A stretch of 64,000 bases of DNA from positions 60,086 through 124,085 of the forward strand of contig CAZJPJ010000001.1 of assembly GCA_964548205.1 (NCBI GenBank). The letters run 5' to 3'. Origin of the DNA: an uncultured Candidatus Saccharibacteria bacterium (GTDB lineage: Bacteria; Patescibacteriota; Minisyncoccia; Phycocordibacterales; WO2-35-19). Each line of letters opens with the position of its first letter. Position 1 is the stretch's first letter. The position numbers and the translations under genes are program-made. Positions 3,864 through 19,758 of the stretch are shown one piece after another. The notes under the pieces were generated by a model. It made no database searches and was not told the origin of the DNA. It was given only the letters and a program-made list of their open reading frames with translations.

Positions 3864-4250
3864 ATGGATGATCATATGTTGTTGACTCAGTCGTCGATTT
3901 ATCCGGTACAGGATAGGTTGCGGCTCCTCGATCTAACCCTCATCGACTTCTTCACCAAGGAGAGGTTGAGCGAGACCAATATGCGGGTCAAAATCTATCT
4001 CAAAAAGATTGAGACTTGGATTGGTATTCTTCCTTCGAGGCTTAGAACCATGAGGGATCTTCTCAATGAATTTCCCAAAAGCGAGGTTCTCCGGAGTAAG
4101 AATGTTGGGGTGAAGACTACCGGAGCGATCTTGGGAACGATCGCCCATCACGGGCTCAGGTTTCGGTACGAGAGTCTCTCTGATCGGCCGACTGGTGCAT
4201 TCTCTTCTGACTCTTCAGATTATTGTGATGAACCAGAAAAGTGCTTCTGA
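3864..4250 (+). CDS. hypothetical protein, second gene of GC-rich segment A
   Basis: 128-aa ORF preceded by TTCTCGGAGGT 10 nt before the ATG. No recognisable family; the stretch KNVGVKTTGAILGTIAHHGL vaguely resembles a helix-hairpin-helix. Confidence 0.45.
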   Translation: MDDHMLLTQSSIYPVQDRLRLLDLTLIDFFTKERLSETNMRVKIYLKKIETWIGILPSRLRTMRDLLNEFPKSEVLRSKNVGVKTTGAILGTIAHHGLRFRYESLSDRPTGAFSSDSSDYCDEPEKCF

Positions 4251-4259
4251 GTTCCCAAT

Positions 4260-4297
4260 GGCCCGCCCGAGTAAATCTCGGGCGGGCCATCACTTTT
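4260..4297 (+). terminator. hairpin GGCCCGCCCGAG, loop taaat, CTCGGGCGGGCC
   Basis: Perfect 12-bp stem sharing the GGCCCGCCC core with the hairpin at 3652. A weak U-tract (CACTTTTGT) follows. Confidence 0.55.
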
Positions 4298-4325
4298 GTA
4301 TAGCGTATTTATTTCTATTTTCAGA

Positions 4326-4952
4326 TCAAATTTCTTTCAATACTTCGAAATCTTTTTTCAGTTGGTCAAGAGTGTGAGAGTTGTACACTGCTACAGCTGG
4401 GTGGTAGAGAGGTATTATCTTCACCTTGCTATTTTTCTGATATCCAAATTTCTCTAGCGCTTCTTTTGGAGCGTCAAAAACTTTGCCGTGCATCTTGCCT
4501 ATTGGCTCGAGTTCGAGCGAGAGCTCGAACTTTTGCATGATGTAACTACTCGCATATCTACCCAGAGCGGCGACGACTTTCGGCTGTATTATCTCTATCT
4601 GTCTGTCTAAGAATGGACCATATATTTCTATCTCTTCCAGCAGAGGGTCTCTGTTCTGAGGAGGTCGGTCTTTGACTATGTTTGTGACGTACACATCTTC
4701 TCTTTTTATACCTACAGATTCTAGAAGTTGGTCTAGTATCTGCCCTGCTCTGCCACAGAATGGCCTGCCGGTCTTTGCCTCATTTCTTCCCGGAGCCTCG
4801 CCTACAAACATGATCTTGGCATTATGGCTTCCCTCACCTATGACCGGCAGGTTTTTGCTCTCTACTCTAAATTTATAAAGCGGTGAATTCTTGAGTGCGA
4901 CTACCTCGTCTCTTATGGCTCTCATCTTTTCTTTTCTGTCTTCGGTTTTCAT
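4326..4952 (-). CDS. uracil-DNA glycosylase, family 4
   Basis: Motif GEAPGRNEAKTGRPFCGRAGQILDQLL is typical of family-4 UDG. The ORF track extends to 5105; the internal Met MKTEDRKEKMRAIRDEVVAL at 4952 gives a family-typical product of about 208 aa. Confidence 0.75.
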   Translation of the reverse strand: MKTEDRKEKMRAIRDEVVALKNSPLYKFRVESKNLPVIGEGSHNAKIMFVGEAPGRNEAKTGRPFCGRAGQILDQLLESVGIKREDVYVTNIVKDRPPQNRDPLLEEIEIYGPFLDRQIEIIQPKVVAALGRYASSYIMQKFELSLELEPIGKMHGKVFDAPKEALEKFGYQKNSKVKIIPLYHPAVAVYNSHTLDQLKKDFEVLKEI

Positions 4953-4988
4953 GATGATTTTATCGTTATATTGTGATATAATAACTTT

Positions 4989-5234
4989 ATGGCAAGAAAA
5001 TCTCAAAAAAGTAATAACCAGTTTATGATCGAGTTTGAGCGCGAAAATGATGGACGCTGGATAGCTGAAATATCTAGACTCCCTGGAGTTATGGTGTATG
5101 GTCATACTAAATCAGAAGCAAGGCAAAAAGTACACGCTCTTGCTCTCCGTGCTATCGCAGATAAAATAGAAAATAGTCGAACTACACCTATATCAATTGC
5201 TCAATTATTTACCTATGAAATGGCGGGCAATTAA
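4989..5234 (+). CDS. hicB: HicB-like antitoxin (UPF0150 family)
   Basis: FMIEFERENDGRWIAEISRLPGVMVYGHTKSEA matches the HicB/UPF0150 core pattern (Y.V..E.E.DG.Y.A..P.LPG....G.T.EEA). The start could instead be the Met at 5025. Confidence 0.6.
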   Translation: MARKSQKSNNQFMIEFERENDGRWIAEISRLPGVMVYGHTKSEARQKVHALALRAIADKIENSRTTPISIAQLFTYEMAGN

Positions 5235-5424
5235 AGCCTCATATCTTCTCAAGATATTTCTAAAATCCGGTTGGATTATAAAAAGACAAAGAGGTTCCCA
5301 TAGAATTTTAAGCAAGTTAAACTTCTCTGATTATACCTTTGCTTTTCATGATCGCGAAGAAATAGGTCCAAAAATGCTTGCACGAATATCAAAACATACG
5401 GGGTTAAAGCCAGAAGATTTATAA
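5215..5424 (+). CDS. hicA: HicA-like mRNA interferase toxin
   Basis: GWIIKRQRGSHRIL...ISKHTGL matches the HicA (YcfA) pattern G...vRq.GSHh.........IlkqaGl. It overlaps the hicB 3' end, which suggests an operon. The ORF track start is 5197. Confidence 0.65.
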   Translation: MKWRAIKASYLLKIFLKSGWIIKRQRGSHRILSKLNFSDYTFAFHDREEIGPKMLARISKHTGLKPEDL

Positions 5425-5426
5425 AG

Positions 5427-5684
5427 TTATTTCAAGGCGCCTTCCGCTTTTAGTTTTCTTATTTTCTCACTCCTTCCCCTGTTGTACTCCCCCGATACCC
5501 CATCGCTTCTTATCACCCTGTGGCAAGGAATTTGGGGATCATAATTTTTCTTCAATATACTCCCTACGGCTCTAGAAGCGTTTGGACTCCCCGCTTTCTT
5601 TGCTACTTCTTTGTATGTCATAGTTTTCCCTTTCGGGATTTTTCTCACTACTTCAAAAACTTTATCTTTAAACGATCTTGTCAT
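5427..5684 (-). CDS. MGMT-family DNA-binding domain protein (O6-alkylguanine-DNA alkyltransferase C-terminal domain only)
   Basis: 85 aa with the PCHRVI active-site motif and a helix-turn-helix stretch KTMTYKEVAKKAGSPNASRAVGSIL. It lacks the N-terminal domain of full-length Ogt. Confidence 0.65.
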   Translation of the reverse strand: MTRSFKDKVFEVVRKIPKGKTMTYKEVAKKAGSPNASRAVGSILKKNYDPQIPCHRVIRSDGVSGEYNRGRSEKIRKLKAEGALK

Positions 5685-6016
5685 GTTTTATGCTGAAGTT
5701 CGTCTATATCTTCTGATATCTCGTCCACATCTTCCTGTATCTCATCGACATCGTGCTGTATCTCGTCCACATCTTTCTGTATCTCTCCCACATCTTCCTC
5801 GACTTCTTTCAGACTTTCTGCCTGCTCGTTGACACTCATTTGGATGAAGATGGCTAGGTATATAGCTTCGAGCGAGACCACTGTAGTGAGAAAAAGTAGC
5901 ACAGTATCAAACCTGTAGCCAAAGAGAGGCAAAGCAAACATCAGCATGAAAAAAAGTGTATGAAGTATGAGAGAACTTCTAGAGCCGATCCATTTTGTAA
6001 ACTTTTTCTCGAGCAT
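5681..6016 (-). CDS. small membrane protein with a C-terminal acidic heptad repeat
   Basis: N-terminal hydrophobic segments, then EEDVGEIQKDVDEIQHDVDEIQEDVDEISEDIDELQ. The repeat is encoded by a 21-bp tandem DNA repeat. Confidence 0.5.
   Translation of the reverse strand: MLEKKFTKWIGSRSSLILHTLFFMLMFALPLFGYRFDTVLLFLTTVVSLEAIYLAIFIQMSVNEQAESLKEVEEDVGEIQKDVDEIQHDVDEIQEDVDEISEDIDELQHKT
5710..5806. repeat. tandem approximately 21-bp coding repeat (CTGTATCTCGTCCACATCTTC-like), 4-5 units
   Basis: Visible directly in the sequence. It encodes the DVDEIQ repeats of the 5681..6016 protein. Confidence 0.7.
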
Positions 6017-6020
6017 TTAT

Positions 6021-6779
6021 TTATTCTACTTTATTTCTATATTCTATATAATTGCAATACTCACACTCAGCACTTTTCTCCGGTAGTTCACTTTTATCCA
6101 ACGCATTTTTGATATCTTTTATTACTCCCTCTACCCAATCACTCTTACCGGTATGAGGTATCAGTGTCACATCAAACTCTAGTTTGCCGTCAAAGGCCTC
6201 CGCGTCTTTCTTGCCGTTTACATATACAAAATATCCTGTGTCACTCACATCAAAACTATTTTTGCGCAAGAGCCACTGGTAAATCTCCATCTGTCTTTTA
6301 TATTGGTTTTCCCATTTGGTGTCACTAAGTGCATCGAGCTTGCCTTCTTTGGCTGTAGCTTTGTAGTCTACTATCACAAGCTTGCCGTCTTTGTCTTGCC
6401 AGATGTCGTCGACTGCTCCAGAGATGGTCATACCGGTTTCTGTGTCGAAATATTCTACTCCTACAAAGTTGTCCCTCCACTTCTCCATATCTTTGTGAGC
6501 GAAGGGTATGGCCTCGACTCCATAACTTTCCATCAGTGGGTGCGATGTCTTTTGGGCTCGGTGCAGGTCGAACTCTTTTTTTAGAAGTGCGTCCACTGCT
6601 ACGTTCAAGGTGAAGGCTGGACCGCGCGGTCGAGATATCCCAAGTTTGTTGTCTATAAAAAAGCACCGAGGACACTCGACAAATAAGTCGATCTTGGAAC
6701 GAGAGAGCCGCCACTTCTTTCCACCATAATTCCAATCGCTACTGCGTGGACCAGTCCTTTTTGTATAAAAATCAGCCAT
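6021..6779 (-). CDS. PD-(D/E)xK nuclease, Cas4/RecB-like, with four Cys that could ligate an Fe-S or Zn centre
   Basis: N-terminal ECPRCFF and C-terminal CEYCNY give a CxxC...CxxC arrangement. Nuclease core GAVDDIWQDKDGKLVIVDYKATAKEG carries the D...D/ExK motifs. Its start overlaps the stop of the upstream gene at 6779. Confidence 0.65.
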   Translation of the reverse strand: MADFYTKRTGPRSSDWNYGGKKWRLSRSKIDLFVECPRCFFIDNKLGISRPRGPAFTLNVAVDALLKKEFDLHRAQKTSHPLMESYGVEAIPFAHKDMEKWRDNFVGVEYFDTETGMTISGAVDDIWQDKDGKLVIVDYKATAKEGKLDALSDTKWENQYKRQMEIYQWLLRKNSFDVSDTGYFVYVNGKKDAEAFDGKLEFDVTLIPHTGKSDWVEGVIKDIKNALDKSELPEKSAECEYCNYIEYRNKVE

Positions 6780-7612
6780 TAGTTTTGGATTAGGTTTATC
6801 TCGTTTATAACCCTCTTTATTTTGGCATCGTTGAGACCGGATTGTAGCAATATATCTTGGTTATCAAGGGCTTGGGTGCAGAGTACGACCCCGCTTTCCA
6901 TAAGCAGTTTCTTCTCTCTACCGGTGAGGCTTTGCAAACTTGTGATTGGATGCAAACCCATATCCTCTATCAGGTCCTGAAGGTTGCCTTCGCTTGGATA
7001 GTTCCAACCTATAAGTTTCATATTTCTGCACTTTGCGTACTGTATAGCTTGGGAAGAAAACTTGGTATTTGTCACGAGCCAACCCTCGTCTAGTTTTCTT
7101 GGTGAGCCAAAGTTGAACTGCTCTTTGGACAGATCGTCCCACCTAGCTTTGACGTATAGGGCCGCTTTCAAATCAGATTTTATACCGAACTGATTGTGGA
7201 ACTTGGCTTCGACCATCACGAGCTTGTTTTCATTCCATGCTACTACATCGATCTCATGGTCTACACACTGACCTTTGGCAATAAAGTCAGTCCTTACTTC
7301 AAAACCTTTTGCTCTAAAGATCTCTGAAACAAGTTGCTCGAAAGGAAAGCCAGTCGGGCCCATCTCCATAACTGCATTGCGAAGAGAATATCGTATAGCG
7401 GCTGGTTTGTGTTCTTTCTTTAGAAGTTCGAAAGCATGTTTGTAGATCTCCTTGGTGGTCATGCCCTCGCGGAGCTCGAGTTCGATGTGGGACATTATCT
7501 TTTCTATCGTGTTGTCGTTGTGTTCGACTCTACGCAAAGAGTTACGCAACTTGCTAGGTTCAAAAGGCTCTCTCTCGCCAGTGGCTTTGGTGATGAGTAT
7601 TTTGTCGTACAT
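6779..7612 (-). CDS. ATP-cone domain fused to an Mrr-like (PD-(D/E)xK) restriction endonuclease domain
   Basis: N-terminus KILITKATGEREPFEPSKLRNSLRR has an ATP-cone signature. The middle FEQLVSEIFRAKGFEV...DHEIDVVAWNENKLVMVEAK has an Mrr_cat-like nuclease core. Confidence 0.65.
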   Translation of the reverse strand: MYDKILITKATGEREPFEPSKLRNSLRRVEHNDNTIEKIMSHIELELREGMTTKEIYKHAFELLKKEHKPAAIRYSLRNAVMEMGPTGFPFEQLVSEIFRAKGFEVRTDFIAKGQCVDHEIDVVAWNENKLVMVEAKFHNQFGIKSDLKAALYVKARWDDLSKEQFNFGSPRKLDEGWLVTNTKFSSQAIQYAKCRNMKLIGWNYPSEGNLQDLIEDMGLHPITSLQSLTGREKKLLMESGVVLCTQALDNQDILLQSGLNDAKIKRVINEINLIQN

Positions 7613-9289: not shown

Positions 9290-9387
9290 TTGACTTTTTT
9301 TTCCACCAAGTTATATTAGAGGAGAACGGTACTTTTAACACTCCTCCTAGGGGGCCACGATTCGCATCCGTGGCCCTCCATTTTTTT
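9290..9387 (+). ncRNA. candidate small RNA: promoter TTGACT, 16-nt spacer, TATATT, then about 65 nt with two hairpins and a T7 run
   Basis: After the -10 element come GAGGAG...CTCCTC (6-bp stem), then GGGGCCACG, loop attcgcatc, CGTGGCCC, then TCCATTTTTTT. There is no credible ORF. It converges on the mltG 3' end. Confidence 0.3.
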
Positions 9388-10516
9388 ATCTCAAATAATT
9401 CTCCCTATTGCTCTGATGACCGTCGAAGTTTTTGGCATAGTATGTATTGCCATATTTGTCTGACATAAAAAATAAGTATTCAGAGTTGGTCGGAGCGATA
9501 GCTGCTCGAAGAGAGTCGATCCCAGGGTTTGTGATGGCGGTGGGCGGTAGCCCTTTGTTTACATAAGTGTTGTAAGGGTGGTCTTCTCCCAAATCTTCTT
9601 TAGTCAAAGTATAAGAGTGTTTGCCGTTGTAGTAGCGGAAAGGGGCATCTACTTGTAGAGGCATATCTATCTTCATACGCTTCCATAGTATTCCAGATAT
9701 CAGTCTCTTCGATTCCAGAGTATTACCTTCTCCTTCTATTATTGAAGCCATGATGACGAGCTCTTCGAGTGGTCGCCCTGATTTCAAAATATCTTCTTCA
9801 TATGTCTTTATCTGCCGCGCAAAGTTTTCTCTCATAGCCAGTATCACATCGTCTGGTTTTGTATTCGGCATGAAGAAGTATGTATCAGGAAAAAGATATC
9901 CTTCATGGTTTCCATTTTCTACATCCCGAATAAATTCATTTGCATCAAAGGCTGGCAATGTTTCTTGAAGTAGTTTGGCAATGTCGATAGAAGAAGAACC
10001 TTCAAATATAGTCACTCTTATGGGTATGAGCCCGAATTCTCCCTTGTGTAGTGTTCTCACTACTTTGAATATCGAAACTTTGTTTGGGAAAAAATAATCC
10101 CCCGCTATCACCCTCCTCTCTCCTCCGGTTAAAAGTATGAAGAATTTTAACCAAAAACTTGATCTGACGATTTTTTGGTTTTGAAAATGATCTGCAATCT
10201 GCGACAATGTTTCACCTCGGTCTACCTCTACAAGTGCTTGGTCTGGAAAGTCTCTTGGGGCACTCCAAGAAAAGATATAGAAGCTTATGAAAAAGGATAA
10301 AATTAGTACAAAGCTCCCTATTATCCTCAGAAAGTATCTGCTTAGTAGTGGGCTGTAGCGCATTATTGATACGCGCCAGATAATGATGCGAGGGTGTATA
10401 ACTAACGCATCTCTCAGATAAGATATTTCAAATCTAATAAATTTCAAAAATTCTACTGATCTATAAAATATAAATCTGAGAAAAGTAATAATTTTTGCTA
10501 AAAAATTTCTAAGCAT
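9386..10516 (-). CDS. mltG: endolytic murein transglycosylase MltG (YceG family)
   Basis: N-terminal TM segment; YLFPDTYFF, LVIMASIIEGE and LQVDAPFRY are YceG signatures. An alternative start Met at 10363 (MRYSPLLS) would give about 325 aa. Confidence 0.8.
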   Translation of the reverse strand: MLRNFLAKIITFLRFIFYRSVEFLKFIRFEISYLRDALVIHPRIIIWRVSIMRYSPLLSRYFLRIIGSFVLILSFFISFYIFSWSAPRDFPDQALVEVDRGETLSQIADHFQNQKIVRSSFWLKFFILLTGGERRVIAGDYFFPNKVSIFKVVRTLHKGEFGLIPIRVTIFEGSSSIDIAKLLQETLPAFDANEFIRDVENGNHEGYLFPDTYFFMPNTKPDDVILAMRENFARQIKTYEEDILKSGRPLEELVIMASIIEGEGNTLESKRLISGILWKRMKIDMPLQVDAPFRYYNGKHSYTLTKEDLGEDHPYNTYVNKGLPPTAITNPGIDSLRAAIAPTNSEYLFFMSDKYGNTYYAKNFDGHQSNRENYLR

Positions 10517-10517
10517 C

Positions 10518-11744
10518 TTATGTAGGTAAGTTTGAAGGAGCCTCCACTTTTCTGGAAGGTACTCTATCTAGGGTAGGAGTGGTAGCTACAGCACCCGGTA
10601 GGTGGAAGATCGTAGCAAGCTCCTCACTGTTTAGTACAAATGGTTTGCTATAGAACCATTTACCCATATAAGGTGAGAAGAAAAACCTACGAAGCTTATA
10701 CTCTTGCATAATCATTTTCGAGAGCTCTCCCTTATCTGTTTTCCACCAATCTTTCCATGGGTTGCTGAAAGTGGAGTGCCACCCAGCAGATTTGAAGCCA
10801 TTGTATCCAAGGGCAGCATATTGTTTGAAACTCCCCAACAGTCCTCCTAGGTATACAGAATCAAATATTTCTTTTGGCGCAAAATACAAAGAACGTATGG
10901 ATACATCAAACGGAATTTTGCCTATACTTCTCTCGAGGGCAGAGATCCTATTCTTTTCCCCTTCTGTGGGTTGTCGTACAGAGCCTTCTTCCGGTCTGAA
11001 TTCCTTTATGATTTTGGTTATTTGTTCTCTGGCCTCATCTTCCCATGCGTCAGTAGTTTCAAACCAAGTCCCTGGTTTCCTCTGTTCTTTCTTGTGTGCT
11101 CTGACGATGATCTGGATCCATACATTGTGACCTTTGGTCAATGAACCCAAGAACTCTAGTTGGCTAGTCATCGGGTCGATCTTAAACTCTTCGTCTGGGT
11201 CTTTGTCCAAGCCATAGTCTACATATGTACTAATCGGCCACGGATCTGCTTGGTCCAGTTTCCACTGACACCCAAACATCTCATGTTGATTTGGGTCAAA
11301 ATAAAAATCTTTCGTATAGTCTTCTACTTGGTGTATCTCTATGCCTGGATACTGAGAATACAGATGGGCTTCTATACCATTTTTGTACTTTTTTCTAGCC
11401 CAAATATAAAACTTTATCTCCCCTCCGATAGATACTATCTCGAGTGAAAACCATGACCGTGTCTGGCCTCTCCAATATTTCCAGTACCAGTTGCCTTCAT
11501 CAGCAGTTTGGTGTAGTTGGTTTAGGACTAACTCCATTGCCAAGGGCGACTTGCTTACGTTTTGTGGAAGTTTTATCTCAAGTAAAACAGAGCCAAGTTT
11601 GTTCCAGTAAGCTTCTCTACGAAACCTAAGCCAAGCCTTAAATGCTGTGGTGAGAAAGAGTATTGGTAAGAAAATCGGTAAAGCATCTACCACATAACCC
11701 AGTGATTTGATGATGTTTTGCAAGAGGTCAGTATTTCCGAACAT
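10518..11744 (-). CDS. hypothetical protein with an N-terminal TM anchor and Trp-rich sequence (408 aa)
   Basis: No recognised motif. It abuts mltG with a 1-bp gap. Confidence 0.5.
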   Translation of the reverse strand: MFGNTDLLQNIIKSLGYVVDALPIFLPILFLTTAFKAWLRFRREAYWNKLGSVLLEIKLPQNVSKSPLAMELVLNQLHQTADEGNWYWKYWRGQTRSWFSLEIVSIGGEIKFYIWARKKYKNGIEAHLYSQYPGIEIHQVEDYTKDFYFDPNQHEMFGCQWKLDQADPWPISTYVDYGLDKDPDEEFKIDPMTSQLEFLGSLTKGHNVWIQIIVRAHKKEQRKPGTWFETTDAWEDEAREQITKIIKEFRPEEGSVRQPTEGEKNRISALERSIGKIPFDVSIRSLYFAPKEIFDSVYLGGLLGSFKQYAALGYNGFKSAGWHSTFSNPWKDWWKTDKGELSKMIMQEYKLRRFFFSPYMGKWFYSKPFVLNSEELATIFHLPGAVATTPTLDRVPSRKVEAPSNLPT

Positions 11745-11826
11745 GGCAGAATTATATCATAAGAAAAATACCGACGTTAATCTTTGGATTCAAAAATTAG
11801 GTGCCGGTGCTTTTCTTAGAAACAAA

Positions 11827-12900
11827 TTAGACCACTGTATATAATCCTTGCTTATTTTTCTTGAAGTATTTTGGATTTTGCAGGTTTACTAGTATGGTGT
11901 TTTCTTTTACATAGCGTTCTTTGAGCACGTTTTTCATGATGTCTTCCTTAGAAAGTGGTCCGTGTTTCTTTATTATATCCGCTATCACTTCTCGTACTAC
12001 ACCAGTCTTATAACCCCATTCTTTCAGAGCATAAAGACCTCGTCCTACAAGTACAAATCTAGAATCTTTGATAAGTTCGTTGTGAGTAGTAGCTACATGA
12101 GCCTTCTTTTTAAATATTTGAGTTATTAGTTTGGCTACTTCTCTGAAATGTATCGGAGAACCATGTTGTCTTAGTATCAAGTAAGCATAATCCCTAACTC
12201 CTTTTGTTTTGATATTTGAGGACTTGGATTTGCCCCATTCGCCCAGAGGATTTTTGGCTATGTTTTTAGAAATAGAAAGCCAACGTGTTAGTATTTCGTC
12301 TTGTTTATAATCTTCAGATACGTCCTTCAAGTGGTCTAGAAAATTCGACACCATATCAGACTCTGGGATAATTTCATCGTCATCTAGTTTTGAGTACATG
12401 TTTTTGAGAGCGTCATGTATTCTGTCTGAGAGCTCTTTGTCTATATGCCATCTATGGTGGTAGTCGGTGTCCTCTTTTAGCTTGTGAAATTCGTCTCCTA
12501 CTACAAGGATAAAGTGGATATATTTCTTTGTAGTTTTTTCTTTGGAGAGTAAGTTTAAAAGCTCTTCTTCAGATACTATACTACCCATCTCCTTAATCAC
12601 TCCTTTCAATTCAGCAAAAACTCCCTCTTCTTTTTTATAGTTTTCAGACTTTCTTATGTGATTTATGGCATAATTTTCTATCTGTCTAACTCGCTCTCTT
12701 GTTATGCCGTATTTTTTGCCGATAGCTTCAAGGGTCATATCTTCTCCAGTCTGATTTAGGCCAAAACGTCCGGAAATAACATCCTGAGCCCTAGCAGGCA
12801 ATGATGCCAAAAGGCGCTTTACAACCTGCTTTGGATTGAAGCTCAGAGTATATACTTTTGCTTTGTTTTCGCTCTTCTTCATAATTAAATTAGACCACAA
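11827..12900 (-). CDS. sigma-70 region-4 domain protein with a C-terminal HARE-HTH-like winged helix
   Basis: N-terminus LEAIGKKYGITRERVRQIENYAINHIRK is sigma70 region 4. C-terminus DYAYLILRQHGSPIHFREVAKLI...GRGLYALKEW resembles HARE-HTH (RpoE-delta/Mrr N-terminal type). Confidence 0.5.
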   Translation of the reverse strand: MWSNLIMKKSENKAKVYTLSFNPKQVVKRLLASLPARAQDVISGRFGLNQTGEDMTLEAIGKKYGITRERVRQIENYAINHIRKSENYKKEEGVFAELKGVIKEMGSIVSEEELLNLLSKEKTTKKYIHFILVVGDEFHKLKEDTDYHHRWHIDKELSDRIHDALKNMYSKLDDDEIIPESDMVSNFLDHLKDVSEDYKQDEILTRWLSISKNIAKNPLGEWGKSKSSNIKTKGVRDYAYLILRQHGSPIHFREVAKLITQIFKKKAHVATTHNELIKDSRFVLVGRGLYALKEWGYKTGVVREVIADIIKKHGPLSKEDIMKNVLKERYVKENTILVNLQNPKYFKKNKQGLYTVV

Positions 12901-12962: not shown

Positions 12963-15900
12963 TTAAGCCACTATATTTAGGAGCTTGTTTGGGACAAAGA
13001 TAACTTTTTTTATATCCCTGTCCCCTATCCACTTTTGGATTTCGGGCAGAGATAGAGCTTTTTCTTTTGCTGTACTTTCGTCGATATTTGCTTCTGCTTC
13101 GAAGCTGGCTCTAACTTTGCTGTTGACTTGTACGACGATAGTTACTTTTTCTTCTTTGATTTTATTTTCATCATACTCTGGCCACTTTTCTAAATGTATG
13201 GACGTCTTATTTCCTATGTCGGATTTATCCCGCGAAGCCTCGGCGAAGTGGGACCAAAGCTCTTCTGTGATATGAGGGGCAAAGGGGCCTAAAATTTTTA
13301 AGAATTTTTCAAAATCTTCTCTTTCAACTTGCGTCTTTCCACTTTCCAACTCATTTACATATATCATCATTGCTGATATGGCAGTATTGAATTTGTAGTT
13401 TTCTATATCCTCAGTAACTTTCTTGATAGTTTTGTGAAGCAAGGTTTCAAGTTTGGTGTTTTTTTCATCAGAGTTTATTTGTGATTTAGAGTTTGGTTCT
13501 TGTAAATTGATTCCAATTCTCCACACTCTCTCCAAAAACCTCCTAACTCCTGCTATGCCTCCAAGGTCCCAAGGGTATTGCCCCACTTCGTTGTATGGAC
13601 CTATGAAAGCAAGATAAAGTCTGACTGTATCTGCTCCTACTTTTGAAACCCATTCATCCGGATCGATGACATTGCCTTTGCTCTTACTCATCTTTTGCCC
13701 ATCTGGTCCGAGTATCAAGCCTCTGTTCATCCTGATTTTGTATGGCTCGCTTTCTTGTACCAAACCCATGTCGAAAAGGGCTTTGTGGAAAAATCTTGAA
13801 TAAAGCAAGTGCATAGTAGTATGCTCGGCTCCGCCTGAGTATCTATCTACAGGCATCCAAGATTTGATTTTGTTTTCTATTTCTCTATTTTCAAATTGTT
13901 TGGAAATCGGAGCTTGAGACTTGAGATTTTCGCGTATGCAATAAGCGAGAAAATACCAAGACGAGTCGACAAACGTATCCATAGTATCGAGTTCGGGTTT
14001 CCAACCTTTACCAAATATTTTTTCAGTTTTTTCTACCAACTCTTTCGAGCTACCAAGTGGTGAAGTCCCCTTAGGTAAAAAGTCTATATTGTCCTCTGGT
14101 AAGAGCCAAGGCAGATGCTCTTCTGGTATCGGGTGTGGCTGGCCTTCTGTATCATAGACCATAGGTATAGGGCAGCCCCAATATCTCTGTCTGCTTAGTA
14201 ACCAGTCTCTCAGTTTGTATTTGGTCACTTTTTGTCCGTACTTTTCTGCGATTTTATCTCGGGCTTGTACTGACGTCATTCTTGTAAATTCTTTGGAATC
14301 AAACAGCACCCCTTCTTCTACAAAAGCTTTTTCTTCAGAATTTAGATTTTCCAAAATCAGAGACATCTCGCTATGAGTCATGTCCTTCTGTTTTATACCT
14401 GTCAGATCTCTCCATTCCAATTCATGTATTTCTGATTCTTCGGCTGAAAGTTCGTCTTGTTCTTCGTCTGTTAGTTCAAAAAGTAAGTTTCTTGTGTGAG
14501 CGATCCTGTTTACATCCTTATGAGCGGCAAAAAATTCAGATTGTGCAATACCGAGTTTTTTTACAAATCTAAAATTTTTGTAACCGGTCTCTTCTTTTAT
14601 TTCTCTCTCAGCCGCTTCTATTTCTGTTTCGCCTTCTTCTATGCCCCCCATCACAAAGGTGACCCAAGGATGCTTTTTCCATTTCAAACACAAGTATTTG
14701 TCAGTTTTTGGATTTCTCACTACCACTATCACTGCATCCCTAAAGATAGTTTCCTTGCCTTCTCTGTGAGGGTTCCTTGGGTCGGGCATTTTTTGGATAA
14801 CCACGCTTTTTGTTGGTAAGTTGTATTTCTTTGCAAAAGTAAAATCACGCTCATCGTGGGCTGGTACGGCCATGACAGCTCCAGTGCCGTAGTTGCCTAG
14901 GACATAATCTGCTACCCATACTGGCAACTCTTCTCCTGTGGCAGGGTGGATGGCCTTGATACCCTTTAGTTCCACTCCAGTCTTTTGCTTTTTGGCATCA
15001 GTTCTTTCTATTTCTGTTTTACTTTTTGTCTCGTTTAAATAATTTTGGATTTCTTGCTTATTTGTAATTTGCGATTTGGAATTTGTGATTTCTTGTTGCA
15101 GCCATTCATTTTCTGGCGCAATCACAATATATGTAACTCCAAAGAGAGTATCGGCTCGTGTTGTGAAGACCTTGACTTCCCCCTGAAAGCTAGAAGCTAG
15201 AAGCTTAAAGCTAATTTCTGCTCCGCTACTTTTCCCTATCCAATTTCTCTGGGTGTCTTTGATCGGTTCAGGCCAGTCTAGGTTTTCCAAGTCGGAAAGA
15301 AGCCTCTCGGCATAATCAGTGATTTTGAAAAACCATTGCTCCAGATCTTTTTGGACCACTTCGCTTCCGCACCTTTCGCACTCACCACTTACCACCTGTT
15401 CGTTTGCAAGTACAGTCTGATCATTCGGGCACCAGTTGACCTTGGCTTTCTTTTTATAAACCAGACCTCTTTTATAAAACTCCAAGAAGAGCCATTGGGT
15501 CCACCGGTAATATTCTGGATCAGAAGTGACAACTTTGCGTGACCAGTCGAAGGAGTTGCCCATGCTCATGAGCTGCTTCTCCATATGAGCAATGTTTTCG
15601 TAAGTCCATTTTTTAGGATCGATGTTTCTCTTTATGGCGGCATTTTCTGCTGGTAGGCCGAACGCGTCGAAACCTATGGGGAATAAGACATTGTGCCCCT
15701 GCATCCTTTTTGCTCGTGCAAAAATATCTGGCACTGCAAAGGCGTACCAGTGGCCTATGTGCAAATTGCCGGATGGGTATGGGAATTCTACAAGAGTATA
15801 AAAATTGTCCCTACCCTTCACTTCATCAGCGACTTCGTAAAGATTGTTTTTTTTCCAGATTTCTTGCCACTTCGCTTCTATCGTTCTATGATCATAAATT

Positions 15901-15980
15901 TCTTTTGCTTGCCCGTCCGAAGCTTTAGCGGAGGCGGGCCACTTCCCCTCTATCTCTTTGTGATCATAATTTTTTTCCAT
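12963..15980 (-). CDS. leuS: leucine--tRNA ligase with an inserted NUDIX-box domain
   Basis: HIGH motif (NLHIGHWYAF), editing-domain motif TTRADTLFGVT, KMSKS motif (QKMSKSKGNVIDP), and 1005 aa in total. Residues around 395-550 carry the NUDIX box GGIEEGETEIEAAEREIKEETGY. Confidence 0.9.
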   Translation of the reverse strand: MEKNYDHKEIEGKWPASAKASDGQAKEIYDHRTIEAKWQEIWKKNNLYEVADEVKGRDNFYTLVEFPYPSGNLHIGHWYAFAVPDIFARAKRMQGHNVLFPIGFDAFGLPAENAAIKRNIDPKKWTYENIAHMEKQLMSMGNSFDWSRKVVTSDPEYYRWTQWLFLEFYKRGLVYKKKAKVNWCPNDQTVLANEQVVSGECERCGSEVVQKDLEQWFFKITDYAERLLSDLENLDWPEPIKDTQRNWIGKSSGAEISFKLLASSFQGEVKVFTTRADTLFGVTYIVIAPENEWLQQEITNSKSQITNKQEIQNYLNETKSKTEIERTDAKKQKTGVELKGIKAIHPATGEELPVWVADYVLGNYGTGAVMAVPAHDERDFTFAKKYNLPTKSVVIQKMPDPRNPHREGKETIFRDAVIVVVRNPKTDKYLCLKWKKHPWVTFVMGGIEEGETEIEAAEREIKEETGYKNFRFVKKLGIAQSEFFAAHKDVNRIAHTRNLLFELTDEEQDELSAEESEIHELEWRDLTGIKQKDMTHSEMSLILENLNSEEKAFVEEGVLFDSKEFTRMTSVQARDKIAEKYGQKVTKYKLRDWLLSRQRYWGCPIPMVYDTEGQPHPIPEEHLPWLLPEDNIDFLPKGTSPLGSSKELVEKTEKIFGKGWKPELDTMDTFVDSSWYFLAYCIRENLKSQAPISKQFENREIENKIKSWMPVDRYSGGAEHTTMHLLYSRFFHKALFDMGLVQESEPYKIRMNRGLILGPDGQKMSKSKGNVIDPDEWVSKVGADTVRLYLAFIGPYNEVGQYPWDLGGIAGVRRFLERVWRIGINLQEPNSKSQINSDEKNTKLETLLHKTIKKVTEDIENYKFNTAISAMMIYVNELESGKTQVEREDFEKFLKILGPFAPHITEELWSHFAEASRDKSDIGNKTSIHLEKWPEYDENKIKEEKVTIVVQVNSKVRASFEAEANIDESTAKEKALSLPEIQKWIGDRDIKKVIFVPNKLLNIVA

Positions 15981-16244: not shown

Positions 16245-16814
16245 ATGTCGAGCTTATATCAGCTTGCGAACTCAATGCATTTTGCGTGGATCGCGTTGTT
16301 CGGTACAGCAATGCTGTGTCTATCTCTCTTTTTCGGTGGTGATCATGACCACGAGGTCGATCATGGTGCCGATGGGGGCGGAGAACACGATGCTGACCAC
16401 GGCGGCGATGGAAACATGTCTATCTTGTCGTTCAAAGTGTTGTGGATGTTCATGGTTGGCTTCGGTGCTGGAGGCTACTTCGGTGCTCAAGCTAAAGCGA
16501 CTGTTCTCGGTGCTTCCATGTCCGGGCTCTTAGCGGGTCTCATAATGGGCGCGCTTGGATATGTCGCTATGAACTATCTGTACCGACACCAAGGCAACAG
16601 CGTCACGAAGACGAGTTCTGTCGTTGGGTCCACTGCTGTAGTGGACACGGCAATTTTGCCTGGCCAACTTGGTGAGGTGAAGTGCATCACTGACGGTCGC
16701 ACGGAATACTTTTCGGCACAATCAAATGTCGGGACACCGATTCCGGTGGCGTCGAGAGTTAAAGTGGTAGACTCAACGGGCAGCGTGCTCGTAGTAGAGC
16801 CATACAACAACTGA
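16245..16814 (+). CDS. NfeD-like membrane protein (short form, C-terminal OB-fold), partner of SPFH/flotillin proteins
   Basis: His/Asp-rich N-terminus and TM helices, then C-terminal GEVKCITDGRTEYFSAQSNVGTPIPVASRVKVVDSTGSVLVVEP (NfeD beta-barrel). It immediately precedes the flotillin gene. Strongly GC-rich. Confidence 0.7.
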   Translation: MSSLYQLANSMHFAWIALFGTAMLCLSLFFGGDHDHEVDHGADGGGEHDADHGGDGNMSILSFKVLWMFMVGFGAGGYFGAQAKATVLGASMSGLLAGLIMGALGYVAMNYLYRHQGNSVTKTSSVVGSTAVVDTAILPGQLGEVKCITDGRTEYFSAQSNVGTPIPVASRVKVVDSTGSVLVVEPYNN

Positions 16815-16834
16815 TCAACAAAAAGGAGAAAAAC

Positions 16835-18598
16835 ATGCAGATTACAAACGACCTCTGGTCTATCATTGCAACCCCAATCATAATCTTGCTCGTAGTGGCA
16901 GCAATCGGTGGGCTCTTACACACACTGAGCAATCGCTACGTCAAGGTTCCTCCGCAGAAGGCACTCATCGTCTATGGCGGCGGGAAAACTCGCGTTGTGT
17001 CTGGTGGTGCCAAGTTCGTAATGCCGTTCGTCGAGAACTTTTTCTTTCTCGACCTGTCGCTGTTCCAGTTCAACGTCTCATTGGAAAATGTGCCAAACAA
17101 GGACAGTGTGCCGGTCAACGTGAAGGCAAGTGTTTCGGCGAAGATTAGCAACAAGGAGGAGATGCTCCCTGTTGCGGCTGGCATTTTCGGCGAGGGCTCG
17201 CTCAAAGAGATTTCGGATAAGGTTCGCGGCATTGTCGACGGCCACGTCCGAGCACTCATCGGCCAGTCCGACATGGAAACCATCCTGCGTGACCAGGATA
17301 CCTTCAAGCAGCAGATCAGCAACCTCGTTTCAACCGAGATGGCTAAAATCGGCTGCGAGATTATCGTCCTGAACATTCAGGAAGTCAGCGATCCTCACGG
17401 GGTCATCGAATCTTTGGGCAAACCGAAGATCGCTGAGGTGAAAGCCGAAGCGGCCATTCGAGAAGCCGAGCAGACTCGACGCCAGACCATCGATACCACC
17501 AACGCTCAGCGCGAAGCTGAGAAGGTGGCTGCTGCCAACAAGGCGCAGATCGCCGAGGCCCAGCGTGATCTAAACACCAAGCAGGCCGGTTACGACGCGG
17601 AAGTGGCCAGGCAGCGAGCAATCGCTGCTCAAGCTGGTCCGCTCGCCGAAGCCGAAGCCCGCAGGGGTGTGGTTGTGGCGGAGGTGGCGGTCGAAGAGGC
17701 TGACACCGAGGCTCGGACCAAACTGCAAGGCAAGGTCAAGGAGCTGAAGAAAGCCGAACTCGACGCTAACCTCATAACCGAGGCTAATGCCAAGGCGGAA
17801 CAATCCGTCATTGTGGCGGAGGGTGCTAAGAAAGCGGCGGTTATCACCGCAGAAGCGGCACGCACCAAACTCACCATCGAGGCTGAAGCTGCGGCGTCTG
17901 CTCGCGAAAAGAAGGCCGAGGGTGATCGTAAGGCTCTCGAACTCGAGGGTCAGGGCGAAGCGGCTAAGGCCAAGCTGGTCGGCGAAGCTGCGGCGGAAGT
18001 CGCTCGCAAAACCGGTGAAGGCGAAGCGGCGGCGAAGAAGGCGAACCTTCTAGCTGAAGCTGAAGGTCGTGAAGCCAATGCCAAAGCGACGCAAGCTCAA
18101 CTTTTGGCTGAAGCCGAAGGTCAGAAGGCCAAGGCAGCTGCAACCAAGGAAGAATTGCTTGCACGCGCGGCTGGTACGGAAGCCGAACTGCTTGCTCAGG
18201 CAATGGGTGTGGCTAAAATGTTGGAAAACTTCCAAGATCTCACTCCGGAGCAGATGAGAATGCTCCAGACCAAGTGGGTTCTGGAAATCCTTCCTTCAGC
18301 CATCGAGAAACTCGGTGGTGCCGGCGAAAAGATCATGGCTGAAGTAGCTAAGCCAATTGCGGCAGCTCTTGGGTCCATCGATAACATCACTGTGTACGAT
18401 TCTGGCTCCGGTACCAATGGTGCTGGTGGCCTAGAACGCTACGCGAAGATCGCTCCGCAGGCACTCATGCAGGCCTTCATGTCATTGAAGGAAACTGGCA
18501 TGTTGCCGATGGTCGCGACGGCTTTGAAGAAGGCTGGTGTGGATGTGTCCTCTCTTATGCCAATGGGCACTGAAGACGACACGGCCAAGCTGTCGTAG
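16835..18598 (+). CDS. floT: flotillin-like SPFH (band 7) protein (FloT/YuaG-like)
   Basis: N-terminal TM, SPFH domain (KALIVYGGGKTRVVSGG...ILRDQDTFKQQISNLV), then a long Ala/Glu-rich coiled-coil (EA repeats) and a C-terminal flotillin tail. About 60% GC by eye against an AT-rich backbone. Confidence 0.85.
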   Translation: MQITNDLWSIIATPIIILLVVAAIGGLLHTLSNRYVKVPPQKALIVYGGGKTRVVSGGAKFVMPFVENFFFLDLSLFQFNVSLENVPNKDSVPVNVKASVSAKISNKEEMLPVAAGIFGEGSLKEISDKVRGIVDGHVRALIGQSDMETILRDQDTFKQQISNLVSTEMAKIGCEIIVLNIQEVSDPHGVIESLGKPKIAEVKAEAAIREAEQTRRQTIDTTNAQREAEKVAAANKAQIAEAQRDLNTKQAGYDAEVARQRAIAAQAGPLAEAEARRGVVVAEVAVEEADTEARTKLQGKVKELKKAELDANLITEANAKAEQSVIVAEGAKKAAVITAEAARTKLTIEAEAAASAREKKAEGDRKALELEGQGEAAKAKLVGEAAAEVARKTGEGEAAAKKANLLAEAEGREANAKATQAQLLAEAEGQKAKAAATKEELLARAAGTEAELLAQAMGVAKMLENFQDLTPEQMRMLQTKWVLEILPSAIEKLGGAGEKIMAEVAKPIAAALGSIDNITVYDSGSGTNGAGGLERYAKIAPQALMQAFMSLKETGMLPMVATALKKAGVDVSSLMPMGTEDDTAKLS

Positions 18599-18600
18599 AC

Positions 18601-18640
18601 ATGTAGGGCCGAGCAAGCAGCTCGGCCCTACATTTTAAGG
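18601..18640 (+). terminator. hairpin ATGTAGGGCCGAGC, loop aagca, GCTCGGCCCTACAT, then TTTAAGG
   Basis: 14-bp perfect stem immediately after the floT stop. Confidence 0.6.
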
Positions 18641-18653
18641 AGAAAGGAAAAAG

Positions 18654-19109
18654 ATGAGAACTTATACTTCAAGTAGTGTCTGGAACGACAAACGGCCAAG
18701 TGCCTTAGTTGTATACTGTAGCGATGGAAGGTTCCATCAACACATCCAAGAATTTGTTGACATGGGGCTCGGTATACCTGAGAGCGATCTCTTGGCTATC
18801 CCTGGTGGGCCGCATGCGCTACAACATGTCTCTGCTTATCCTAAGGCACGGTGGGCAAGCAAGTTTTTTCTTGAGTTCTTAGCCAAGCATCACCAGATTT
18901 CTCGGATTGTTCTAATCGGGCACGAGGGGTGCGCGTGGTATCGATCGGTGGTTTTTCAGGAGGTCGAGCTCAATGTGCTTAGAGATCGACAAAGTAAAGA
19001 TCTGAAGAACGTGCTGGGTCTAGTGAAGGAGACGCACCCAGGAGCCACAGTCGAGTTGTACTTCGCTAGACCAAAAGGAGATTCGGTGGAGTTCACTTTG
19101 ATTAAGTAG
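18654..19109 (+). CDS. hypothetical protein with beta-carbonic-anhydrase-like Cys/Asp/His motifs
   Basis: VVYCSDGRF and LIGHEGCAW resemble the beta-CA zinc-site motifs C(S)D(S)R and HxxC. The product is only 151 aa, so the assignment is tentative. GC-rich. Confidence 0.35.
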   Translation: MRTYTSSSVWNDKRPSALVVYCSDGRFHQHIQEFVDMGLGIPESDLLAIPGGPHALQHVSAYPKARWASKFFLEFLAKHHQISRIVLIGHEGCAWYRSVVFQEVELNVLRDRQSKDLKNVLGLVKETHPGATVELYFARPKGDSVEFTLIK

Positions 19110-19128
19110 CGACTTCTTACCCCATGGT

Positions 19129-19170
19129 CCGGCGTTTCCCTAGGGGGAGCGCCGGGCTATTTCTTTTGAC
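19129..19170 (+). terminator. hairpin CCGGCG, 15-nt loop, CGCCGG, then CTATTTCTTTT
   Basis: Read directly after the stop of the 18654..19109 ORF. Confidence 0.5.
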
Positions 19171-19221
19171 AATTTTTAGTTTTTACTTGCCCCCTGCTTT
19201 GTATGGGGGTATATTTTTTAT

Positions 19222-19758
19222 ATGGACGATGAAGAAGAAAAACAAGAGGATAAGAAGATAGGTGCAGAATCAGAATCAAAAGCTAAGACAGAAGAATCTA
19301 TAGAAAGTGCTGACCAAGCTCTCGATCAGCCGGACGCATCTGAAAATATAGAGGTGAAGAAGGAAGAAGAACCGGAAGAGCATATTGTAGTAGAAAAGAT
19401 AGGTAATAAGACGGTTGAAAGAAGAGGGGGTGATGTCACTATCACAGAAGTGATGCAAGAAGAGCCCGCCCCGCCAAGGGCGGGGCGGGCCTCAGAATCA
19501 GTCGCCTTCCCTGCCCCGTTCACACAAAAAGGTCTTTGGCAACAGTATTTGCAAAAAACTAACGAAAGAAAAAGAAAGAAGCTCGATAAGATAGTGGAGT
19601 ATTTGAACAAAAATCAAAAAATATCGAACGATCAAGTAGAAAAACTTTTGCGTGTCTCTGATGCTACGGCTACACGGTATCTAGACCAGCTCGAGAAAGA
19701 AAACAAAATAAAACAAGTAGGAACGACCGGAAGACATACTCATTATGTTTTGTCCTAA
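19222..19758 (+). CDS. acidic protein with a C-terminal winged-helix DNA-binding domain
   Basis: N-terminus is Glu/Asp/Lys-rich low complexity. C-terminus ISNDQVEKLLRVSDATATRYLDQLEKENKIKQVGTTGRHTHYVL is DeoR/FaeA-like wHTH. A GC-rich palindrome (19471-19497) is embedded in-frame. Confidence 0.5.
   Translation: MDDEEEKQEDKKIGAESESKAKTEESIESADQALDQPDASENIEVKKEEEPEEHIVVEKIGNKTVERRGGDVTITEVMQEEPAPPRAGRASESVAFPAPFTQKGLWQQYLQKTNERKRKKLDKIVEYLNKNQKISNDQVEKLLRVSDATATRYLDQLEKENKIKQVGTTGRHTHYVLS

Follow-up and report, generated by a model that had tools for sequence, protein, structure and literature searches.

The leuS gene and its inserted NUDIX domain

The DNA analysed here, referred to below as the window, is a stretch of 64,000 nucleotides (nt) from an uncultured Candidatus Saccharibacteria bacterium (assembly GCA_964548205.1, contig CAZJPJ010000001.1, positions 60,086 to 124,085). 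Its leuS open reading frame (ORF), which occupies nt 12963-15980 on the minus strand, encodes a leucyl-tRNA synthetase (LeuRS) of 1005 amino acids (aa) in which a complete NUDIX domain is nested within the CP1 editing domain. The Pfam NUDIX profile PF00293 matches aa 413-534 of this protein (nt 14379-14744) over profile positions 2-123 of 134, with an E-value of 7e-16 and a score of 58.9 bits against a gathering cut-off of 21.1, while the inserted module as a whole, as delimited by alignment to the Thermus thermophilus LeuRS (PDB 1h3n) and to relatives, spans aa 396-553 (nt 14322-14795). An earlier note on this DNA, made from the letters alone, had placed such a domain with a canonical NUDIX box at 14330-14800, inside an otherwise intact LeuRS, and both the position and the architecture are borne out by the Pfam and NCBIfam searches, the alignment to 1h3n and the motifs.

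As judged from its sequence, the protein that surrounds the insert is most likely a genuine and functional LeuRS of the bacterial type, encoded by the Paceibacteria-like genome of an ultrasmall member of the Patescibacteria. It scores 945.7 bits against the NCBIfam model TIGR00396 (leuS_bact), for which the equivalog cut-off is 548.4, the match being split into two stretches with a break at aa ~400, and it is colinear with 1h3n over its full length (678 bits). Both class I signatures are present, i.e., HIGH at aa 74-77 (nt 15750-15761) and KMSKS at aa 763-767 (nt 13680-13694), and Pfam detects the class I catalytic domain as well as the anticodon-binding domain PF08264 at aa 844-968 (nt 13077-13451). 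The LeuRS editing domain PF13603 is matched at aa 245-400 (E-value 9e-60, profile positions 1-146 of 185), and the part of CP1 that precedes the insert (aa 245-395, nt 14796-15248) holds the T-rich editing motif TTRADT at aa 273-278 (nt 15147-15164) and the stretch AVPAHDERDF at aa 371-380 (nt 14841-14870), in which the editing-site residue D376 is invariant across a 50-sequence alignment. Downstream of the insert, CP1 resumes with VEEGVLFDSKEF and occupies aa 554-588 (nt 14217-14321), after which KLRDWLLSRQRYWG at aa 589-602 (nt 14175-14216) marks the return to the catalytic core and forms the conserved flank on that side. The catalytic, editing and NUDIX motifs named in the earlier note were thus all located, each at verified coordinates.

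The leucine-specific domain, which in T. thermophilus occupies residues 579-637 (~57 aa before KMSKS) and which is also found in Escherichia coli LeuRS, is absent from the window protein, where residue 758 joins directly to 763. The protein also carries an N-terminal extension of 28 residues (nt 15897-15980), predicted to be disordered (predicted local distance difference test (pLDDT) score <50 for aa 1-25), and the motif YDH(K/R)xIExKW occurs twice, at aa 5-14 and aa 29-38. Either the extension stems from a short duplication, or the start codon was called too far upstream.

Insertion site and junctions

In the alignment with 1h3n, aa 398-550 of the window protein stand opposite only residues 365-374, which confirms the insertion point and corresponds to a net gain of ~145-150 aa; the module takes the place of a loop of ~8 residues in T. 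thermophilus LeuRS and of 7 residues in an insert-less relative (P0199). The host loop belongs to the C-terminal portion of CP1 and lies between KYNLPTKSVVIQ and VEEGVLFDSKEF, so that the NUDIX domain sits inside CP1, which itself sits inside the Rossmann fold. The earlier description of the site as a leucyl-specific segment was therefore mistaken, as the host is a CP1 loop and the leucine-specific domain is missing from this protein altogether.

Both junctions (VVIQ/KMPDP on the N-terminal side and EEKAF/VEEGV on the C-terminal side) are in frame, the C-terminal CP1 segment picks up exactly at the expected point, and on each side the insertion is flanked by a stretch that ranks among the most conserved of the whole protein alignment. 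An intein or other self-splicing insertion was considered and rejected, as the junctions show neither a nucleophile (Cys, Ser or Thr) on the N-terminal side nor a terminal His-Asn followed by one of these residues on the C-terminal side, and as the sole Pfam match within the insert is NUDIX, with no Hint domain. The junctions bear no intein-like or transposon-like features, and flanking direct repeats do not exceed chance level in this AT-rich sequence, among them a pair of 24-nt segments (14326-14349 and 14805-14828) that share 71% identity.

Fold and conservation of the module

The insert, when modelled alone with 31 homologues, is predicted with a pLDDT of 94.5 and a predicted template modelling score (pTM) of 0.87, and it shows the alpha/beta/alpha arrangement of a NUDIX fold, as an autonomous module would. 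In the model of the full-length LeuRS (pLDDT 87.5, pTM 0.78) the blocks of the insert score between 88 and 96 and the two junction blocks 94 and 92. These models indicate that the module is able to fold on its own. Furthermore, homologues of 158-167 aa that exist as free-standing proteins in Patescibacteria are colinear with the insert from the first to the last residue, and because they align end to end it appears that a whole small NUDIX gene was grafted into leuS.

The NUDIX box, GGIEEGETEIEAAEREIKEETGY (aa 445-467, nt 14580-14648), conforms to the pattern GX5EX7REUXEEXGU at every defined position (G445-x5-E451-x7-R459-E460-I-K-E463-E464-T-G466-Y467). Conservation was assessed across 138 embedded NUDIX copies with a mean pairwise identity of ~37%, among which G445, E460 and E464 are present in 100%, G446 in 97%, E463 and G466 each in 96%, and E451 and R459 each in 88%. 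In addition to the box, the embedded copies share a signature of their own that comprises R414 (91%), W434 (86%), K488 (99%), N491 (93%), R492 (87%) and W523 (99%); three of these residues fall within the motif HKDVNR at aa 487-492 (nt 14505-14522), which aligns to the KD..R of the AvrM14 NUDIX protein. Conservation of the catalytic residues at 88-100%, against a mean identity of only ~37%, is what we read as purifying selection for an enzymatic activity with a defined substrate. Residue conservation likewise makes it most likely that the module hydrolyses a small nucleotide pyrophosphate as an active, Mg2+-dependent enzyme.

The embedded modules are strongly acidic, with a mean net charge of -7.4 and an isoelectric point (pI) below 6 in 90% of them, and this acidity favours a small-molecule substrate over RNA. 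A purely structural role, i.e., a module that is non-catalytic or that merely binds tRNA, was also considered and is disfavoured by the conservation of the box together with the acidity.

Distribution among Patescibacteria

A locus scan that covered one genome per prokaryotic species identified at least 293 loci that encode relatives of the insert, the best 80 of which were examined. In ~75 of these 80 the NUDIX domain lies between the N- and C-terminal halves of a LeuRS, in the same order as in the window, and in more than 60 the gene is a single uninterrupted ORF of 900-1560 aa. At the protein level, a NUDIX domain was found in 87 of the 118 scored proteins from the best 120 clusters at 90% identity, and among the best 150 cluster representatives at 50% identity there were 64 with a near-full-length match and 66 with any match. 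Most of these 64 carry one copy (55 proteins), while seven carry two and two carry three. Nor is the arrangement peculiar to this genome: it is abundant among public Patescibacteria sequences, where it simply goes unnamed.

The best 80 loci bear labels of the Patescibacteria group or the unclassified label 'uncultured bacterium', together with a minority of other labels, which we consider unreliable. Several metagenome-assembled genomes (MAGs) with a Patescibacteria-like LeuRS (L003, L008, L009, L073, L078 and L080) bear organism labels that fit poorly with it, namely 'Gammaproteobacteria', 'Woesearchaeota', 'Bacilli' and, in many cases, 'Saccharibacteria'. These labels, too, look unreliable.

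The sequence is of the metagenome type and the GC content changes sharply ~270 bp upstream of leuS (0.53 versus 0.41), either of which might prompt the suspicion that leuS and a separate NUDIX gene were fused by a chimeric join during assembly or annotation. The likelihood of such an artefact is negligible: the ORF is unbroken, the junctions are in frame and CP1 resumes where expected, and dozens of independent assemblies share the architecture, including contigs of 0.64-0.97 Mb and a record of 0.9 Mb titled 'chromosome: 1'. A protein identical to the window LeuRS (P0163) has moreover been recovered from two sources, NCBI and Logan, the longest contig measuring 163.6 kb. On a JGI contig (L001), a leuS gene that bears a frameshift contains the same NUDIX domain, and the genes downstream follow the same order as in the window, namely a Sigma70_r4/HARE-HTH gene, an uncharacterised gene and YceG. 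On the strength of the independent assemblies and this synteny, a chimera was rejected.

Gain, loss and exchange of the module

The closest relatives of the window LeuRS, whose core regions are 66-73% identical to it, are divided roughly equally into those that possess the NUDIX domain and those (773-856 aa) that have no insert at this site. Some of the insert-less relatives retain a short loop, as in P0199, while others also lack ~30 flanking residues of CP1, in what looks like a secondary deletion. No link was seen between the presence of NUDIX and the loss of editing or catalytic motifs, which are equally well kept in relatives with and without the module.

The NUDIX domain was also encountered at positions equivalent to window aa ~232-236, ~260-268 and ~296-312, either alone or alongside a copy at the main site. 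Where one protein carries several copies, these share only 19-50% identity, and each of them resembles a copy from a different protein more closely, in some cases one at the other site; a recent tandem duplication was rejected as the origin of the multi-copy LeuRS on the basis of this low identity. As examples of such proteins, three modules are present in a single LeuRS in P0058 and P0063 and two in L013 and L037, with within-protein identities of 34-50%. In a neighbour-joining tree, copies from other positions and free-standing copies are scattered among those from the window site.

Identity of the LeuRS core and identity of the NUDIX module are only weakly correlated (Spearman 0.33), and individual pairs are clearly mosaic: the window protein and P0261 are 84% identical inside the insert and 50% outside it, whereas the window protein and P0187 are 44% identical inside and 69% outside. 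Taken at face value, these sequence comparisons indicate that the module is no integral part of LeuRS catalysis but an accessory, exchangeable cassette, one that has been gained, lost, duplicated, moved among CP1 loops and swapped among leuS genes. The swapping would probably have proceeded by recombination, with the conserved flanks AVPAHDERDF and RDWLLSRQRYWG serving as homology arms.

Other guest domains in the same loops

NUDIX is not the only guest of the CP1 loops. Related LeuRS proteins also contain a serine hydrolase (PF06821), GNAT, an aminoglycoside-2''-adenylyltransferase-like domain, ASCH and the endonuclease-like DUF559, together with two modules of ~130 aa without a confident Pfam match, one of which has a sub-threshold match to DUF3801. 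Such non-NUDIX guests were seen in P0064, P0077, P0161, P0071, P0083/P0127, P0113/P0143, P0274 and P0190, the GNAT domain occupying the very same CP1 loop as the window NUDIX in some Patescibacteria LeuRS, e.g., in P0161. A DUF559/REase-like domain (PF04480, PF18741) is located at the N-terminal edge of CP1 in P0177 (aa 292-395), P0184, P0209, P0210 and P0212, and some of the LeuRS proteins with DUF559 also carry NUDIX at the insertion site of the window protein. The DUF559 insertions recall those in rRNA genes of bacteria from the Candidate Phyla Radiation (CPR), where an excerpt of a published report describes insertion sequences with homing endonucleases (PMC11270868).

This variety of guests, with its patchy distribution and the exchange of modules, might suggest that the CP1 loops are no more than permissive landing sites and that the inserts are neutral or selfish passengers, persisting for the reason that an imprecise deletion would kill an essential gene. 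The insert-less relatives from which ~30 flanking residues have also disappeared would be consistent with sloppy loss, and the CPR excerpt indicates that conserved genes of this group, e.g., those for rRNA, accumulate insertions. Nevertheless, passenger status is improbable for the NUDIX module, as its catalytic and subfamily residues have remained 88-100% conserved over the 138 divergent copies, and as the junctions show neither intein- nor transposon-like features and only chance-level direct repeats.

The same diversity might be read in a functional sense: in Patescibacteria the CP1 domain of LeuRS could serve as a modular platform that docks exchangeable cassettes (NUDIX, GNAT, serine hydrolase, aminoglycoside-nucleotidyltransferase-like, ASCH and the two ~130-aa modules). 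Placed near the pocket for the CCA end, these would repair or detoxify damaged tRNA 3' ends or toxins that mimic aminoacyl-adenylates, the whole forming a defence or repair system within the synthetase that spreads by recombination through the conserved flanks. We consider this a speculative and rather unlikely proposition. A comparison with the PADLOC anti-phage defence models yielded no meaningful match, the only score being 16.8 bits to PDC-S07.

Gene neighbourhood

The genes on the 3' side of leuS (window nt 9386-12900) encode a protein with Sigma70_r4 and HARE-HTH domains, an uncharacterised protein of ~410 aa (DUF8128 in L001) and YceG/MltG, and their counterparts in L001 lie at 4102-7519. 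On the other side, starting ~270 bp upstream of leuS, is a high-GC island (16245-19758; GC ~0.53, with values up to 0.63, versus ~0.41 elsewhere) that encodes an NfeD-like protein, an SPFH/flotillin protein of 587 aa, a putative carbonic-anhydrase-like protein and a winged-helix protein. This island was probably acquired horizontally. No tRNA genes and no second NUDIX of the insert's subfamily were found elsewhere in the 64-kb window.

Two of the loci with a free-standing homologue of the module have neighbours connected with tRNA. In L046 (5385-6468) the homologue overlaps the 3' end of a putative peptidyl-tRNA hydrolase gene, so named by its N-terminal sequence alone, and in L028 (5926-8855) it lies 300 bp upstream of a gene for a class I aminoacyl-tRNA synthetase of 705 aa.

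Function and substrate

The reading that we favour, with moderate confidence, is that the window protein is a bifunctional LeuRS, into a CP1 surface loop of which a whole small NUDIX enzyme has been grafted as an accessory and most likely active module. The LeuRS part would aminoacylate and edit normally, while the NUDIX part would be produced at a fixed 1:1 ratio with the synthetase, remain held on it and clear a nucleotide by-product. The likeliest candidate substrates would be dinucleoside polyphosphates, i.e., Ap3A to Ap6A and related 5'-5' linked species, which are products of aminoacyl-tRNA synthetases.

The assignment to dinucleoside polyphosphates or related 5'-5' pyrophosphates is tentative and, by our estimate, less likely than not to be correct. 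It was made because the closest relatives of known function belong to that type and because synthetases, which are a cellular source of diadenosine tetraphosphate (Ap4A), produce such compounds. By sequence or fold, these nearest relatives are hydrolases of Ap4A, Ap6A and other diadenosine polyphosphates (ApnA), RppH and a decapping NUDIX enzyme, all at weak similarity. The best profile matches in the PDB, likewise weak, are to the lupin Ap4A hydrolase and to the effector AvrM14, which has been described as an mRNA-decapping Nudix protein (bioRxiv 10.1101/2023.11.14.566975) and which is the only one of the two whose match reaches beyond the NUDIX box.

Several points weigh against the favoured reading. 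With regard to the substrate, the module reaches none of the NCBIfam equivalog cut-offs, its best score being 29 bits where at least 103 is needed, and the substrate is to that extent a guess: the best RppH (NudH) score is 27.5 bits where the model demands 118, which leaves the module outside the ApnA hydrolase/RppH family, and the models for MutT 8-oxo-dGTPase, NudB, NudE and ADP-ribose/NADH pyrophosphatase give at most 29 bits against cut-offs of 103-475. LeuRS is not known to be a major producer of Ap4A. As for the accessory nature of the cassette, the subfamily resides almost exclusively inside LeuRS, as set out above, and its junctions are predicted to be rigid, both of which could mean that the coupling to the synthetase is functionally tighter than in an accessory cassette. 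Finally, the argument for exchange uses a simple neighbour-joining tree and pairwise identities, and many of the MAGs involved bear unreliable organism labels.

A tighter coupling of this kind would be one in which NUDIX acts in cis on products of the LeuRS active site, either on Ap4A formed from leucyl-adenylate (Leu-AMP) and ATP or on (non-cognate) aminoacyl-adenylates, as part of the quality control of LeuRS. Its near-confinement to LeuRS, the short linkers, the confidently predicted junctions and the weak similarity to ApnA hydrolases would all fit such a clean-up or proofreading role. ApnA hydrolases reportedly possess a Tyr some 16-18 residues downstream of the NUDIX box, and the window protein has two aromatic residues, F483 and F484, at 16-17 residues past the box, position 484 being Tyr in 49% of the embedded copies. 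Even so, we regard this role as unlikely: the module is missing from about half of the closest LeuRS relatives, whose catalytic and editing motifs do not differ; it occurs at three or more positions and thus has no constant geometry with respect to the active sites; unrelated enzymes occupy the same sites; and modules have been exchanged between genes. Moreover, aminoacyl-adenylates are not pyrophosphates, and Leu-AMP, which is an acyl-phosphate mixed anhydride, is no typical NUDIX substrate. Its hydrolysis in cis, which the earlier note had raised as a possibility alongside that of Ap4A or other nucleotide by-products, is chemically unlikely.

RNA is another conceivable target, given that CP1 binds the CCA end: on tRNA(Leu) or some other RNA, the module might remove a group linked through pyrophosphate, for which a 5'-triphosphate, a cap (NAD or Np4) and a 3'-pyrophosphate added by a toxin are candidates. 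The match to AvrM14, the repeated weak matches to RppH models and the tRNA-related neighbours of the two free-standing homologues in L046 and L028 point in that direction. We nevertheless hold an RNA-directed activity to be quite improbable, given the strong acidity of the modules, similarity scores that all fall far under the family cut-offs, and insertion positions too variable to impose a defined geometry with respect to the CCA end; in addition, the 5' ends of mature tRNAs are monophosphates. Hydrolysis of a small nucleotide by a module carried on, and exchangeable between, LeuRS proteins remains the reading that we prefer.

Comparison with known systems

Bacterial aminoacyl-tRNA synthetases are usually regarded as architecturally conservative. 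Here, an essential synthetase of a large uncultured radiation carries one to three active-looking NUDIX domains, or other small enzymes, within its editing domain. If the NUDIX domain acts on synthetase-derived dinucleoside polyphosphates, the production and removal of Ap4A would be directly and physically linked, and if tRNA-end repair or defence against toxins is what the various cassettes have in common, these would be modules of a new kind, serving quality control or immunity. Databases name the full-length proteins only 'leucine--tRNA ligase', 'leucyl-tRNA synthetase' or 'class I tRNA ligase family protein', and under such names a second activity would be missed when metabolism is reconstructed from these reduced genomes. 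Short JGI fragments alone are labelled MutT/NUDIX pyrophosphatase, with LeuRS unmentioned, and precomputed Pfam annotation flags PF00293. No paper on a LeuRS-NUDIX protein was found in full-text literature searches, whose coverage leaves out most subscription-journal papers, and the view of the earlier note that the architecture had not been described agrees with this. The arrangement is real, widespread and, in the literature covered, undescribed, although hundreds of these proteins are already present in public databases.

Compared with LeuRS of the bacterial type, as represented by T. thermophilus (1H3N/2BYT) and E. coli (4AQ7), the window protein is alike in its HIGH and KMSKS signatures, in a CP1 domain with the T-rich motif and the editing-site Asp, and in its anticodon-binding and C-terminal domains. 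It differs in the ~150-aa NUDIX domain at the position of T. thermophilus residues 365-374, in the N-terminal extension of 28 aa and in the lack of the leucine-specific domain.

Compared with small NUDIX hydrolases, among them the uncharacterised Enterococcus faecalis protein 2AZW, the ApnA hydrolases of lupin (1F3Y), T. thermophilus (Ndx1) and Mycobacterium tuberculosis (Rv2985), RppH and AvrM14 of flax rust, the insert is just 14-25% identical. Unlike these single-domain enzymes, its subfamily has a signature of its own and mostly resides inside a domain of another enzyme. Closer counterparts are the free-standing NUDIX proteins of Patescibacteria (P0003, P0004 and P0005, along with those of L027, L028, L046 and L057), which are 37-53% identical to the insert and share its signature. 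These are encoded by separate genes and constitute a small minority (~5 of the best 80 loci) that nests among the embedded copies.

A parallel for the combination of a class Ia synthetase with an additional small enzyme is offered by the NCBIfam family NF040702 ('ileS_w_GNAT', isoleucine--tRNA ligase), known here by the name of its model alone, which differs from LeuRS-NUDIX both in the synthetase and in the guest domain. With respect to the host, a survey of domain insertions recorded 213 events, with zero instances in which PF13603 acts as host, and designated the LeuRS editing domain an 'insertion-exclusive' module (Protein Sci 2026, PMC13114784). CP1 is itself inserted in the class I catalytic fold. 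In the window LeuRS it is the host of a further, nested insertion, which contradicts that survey's statement that this domain is never a host.

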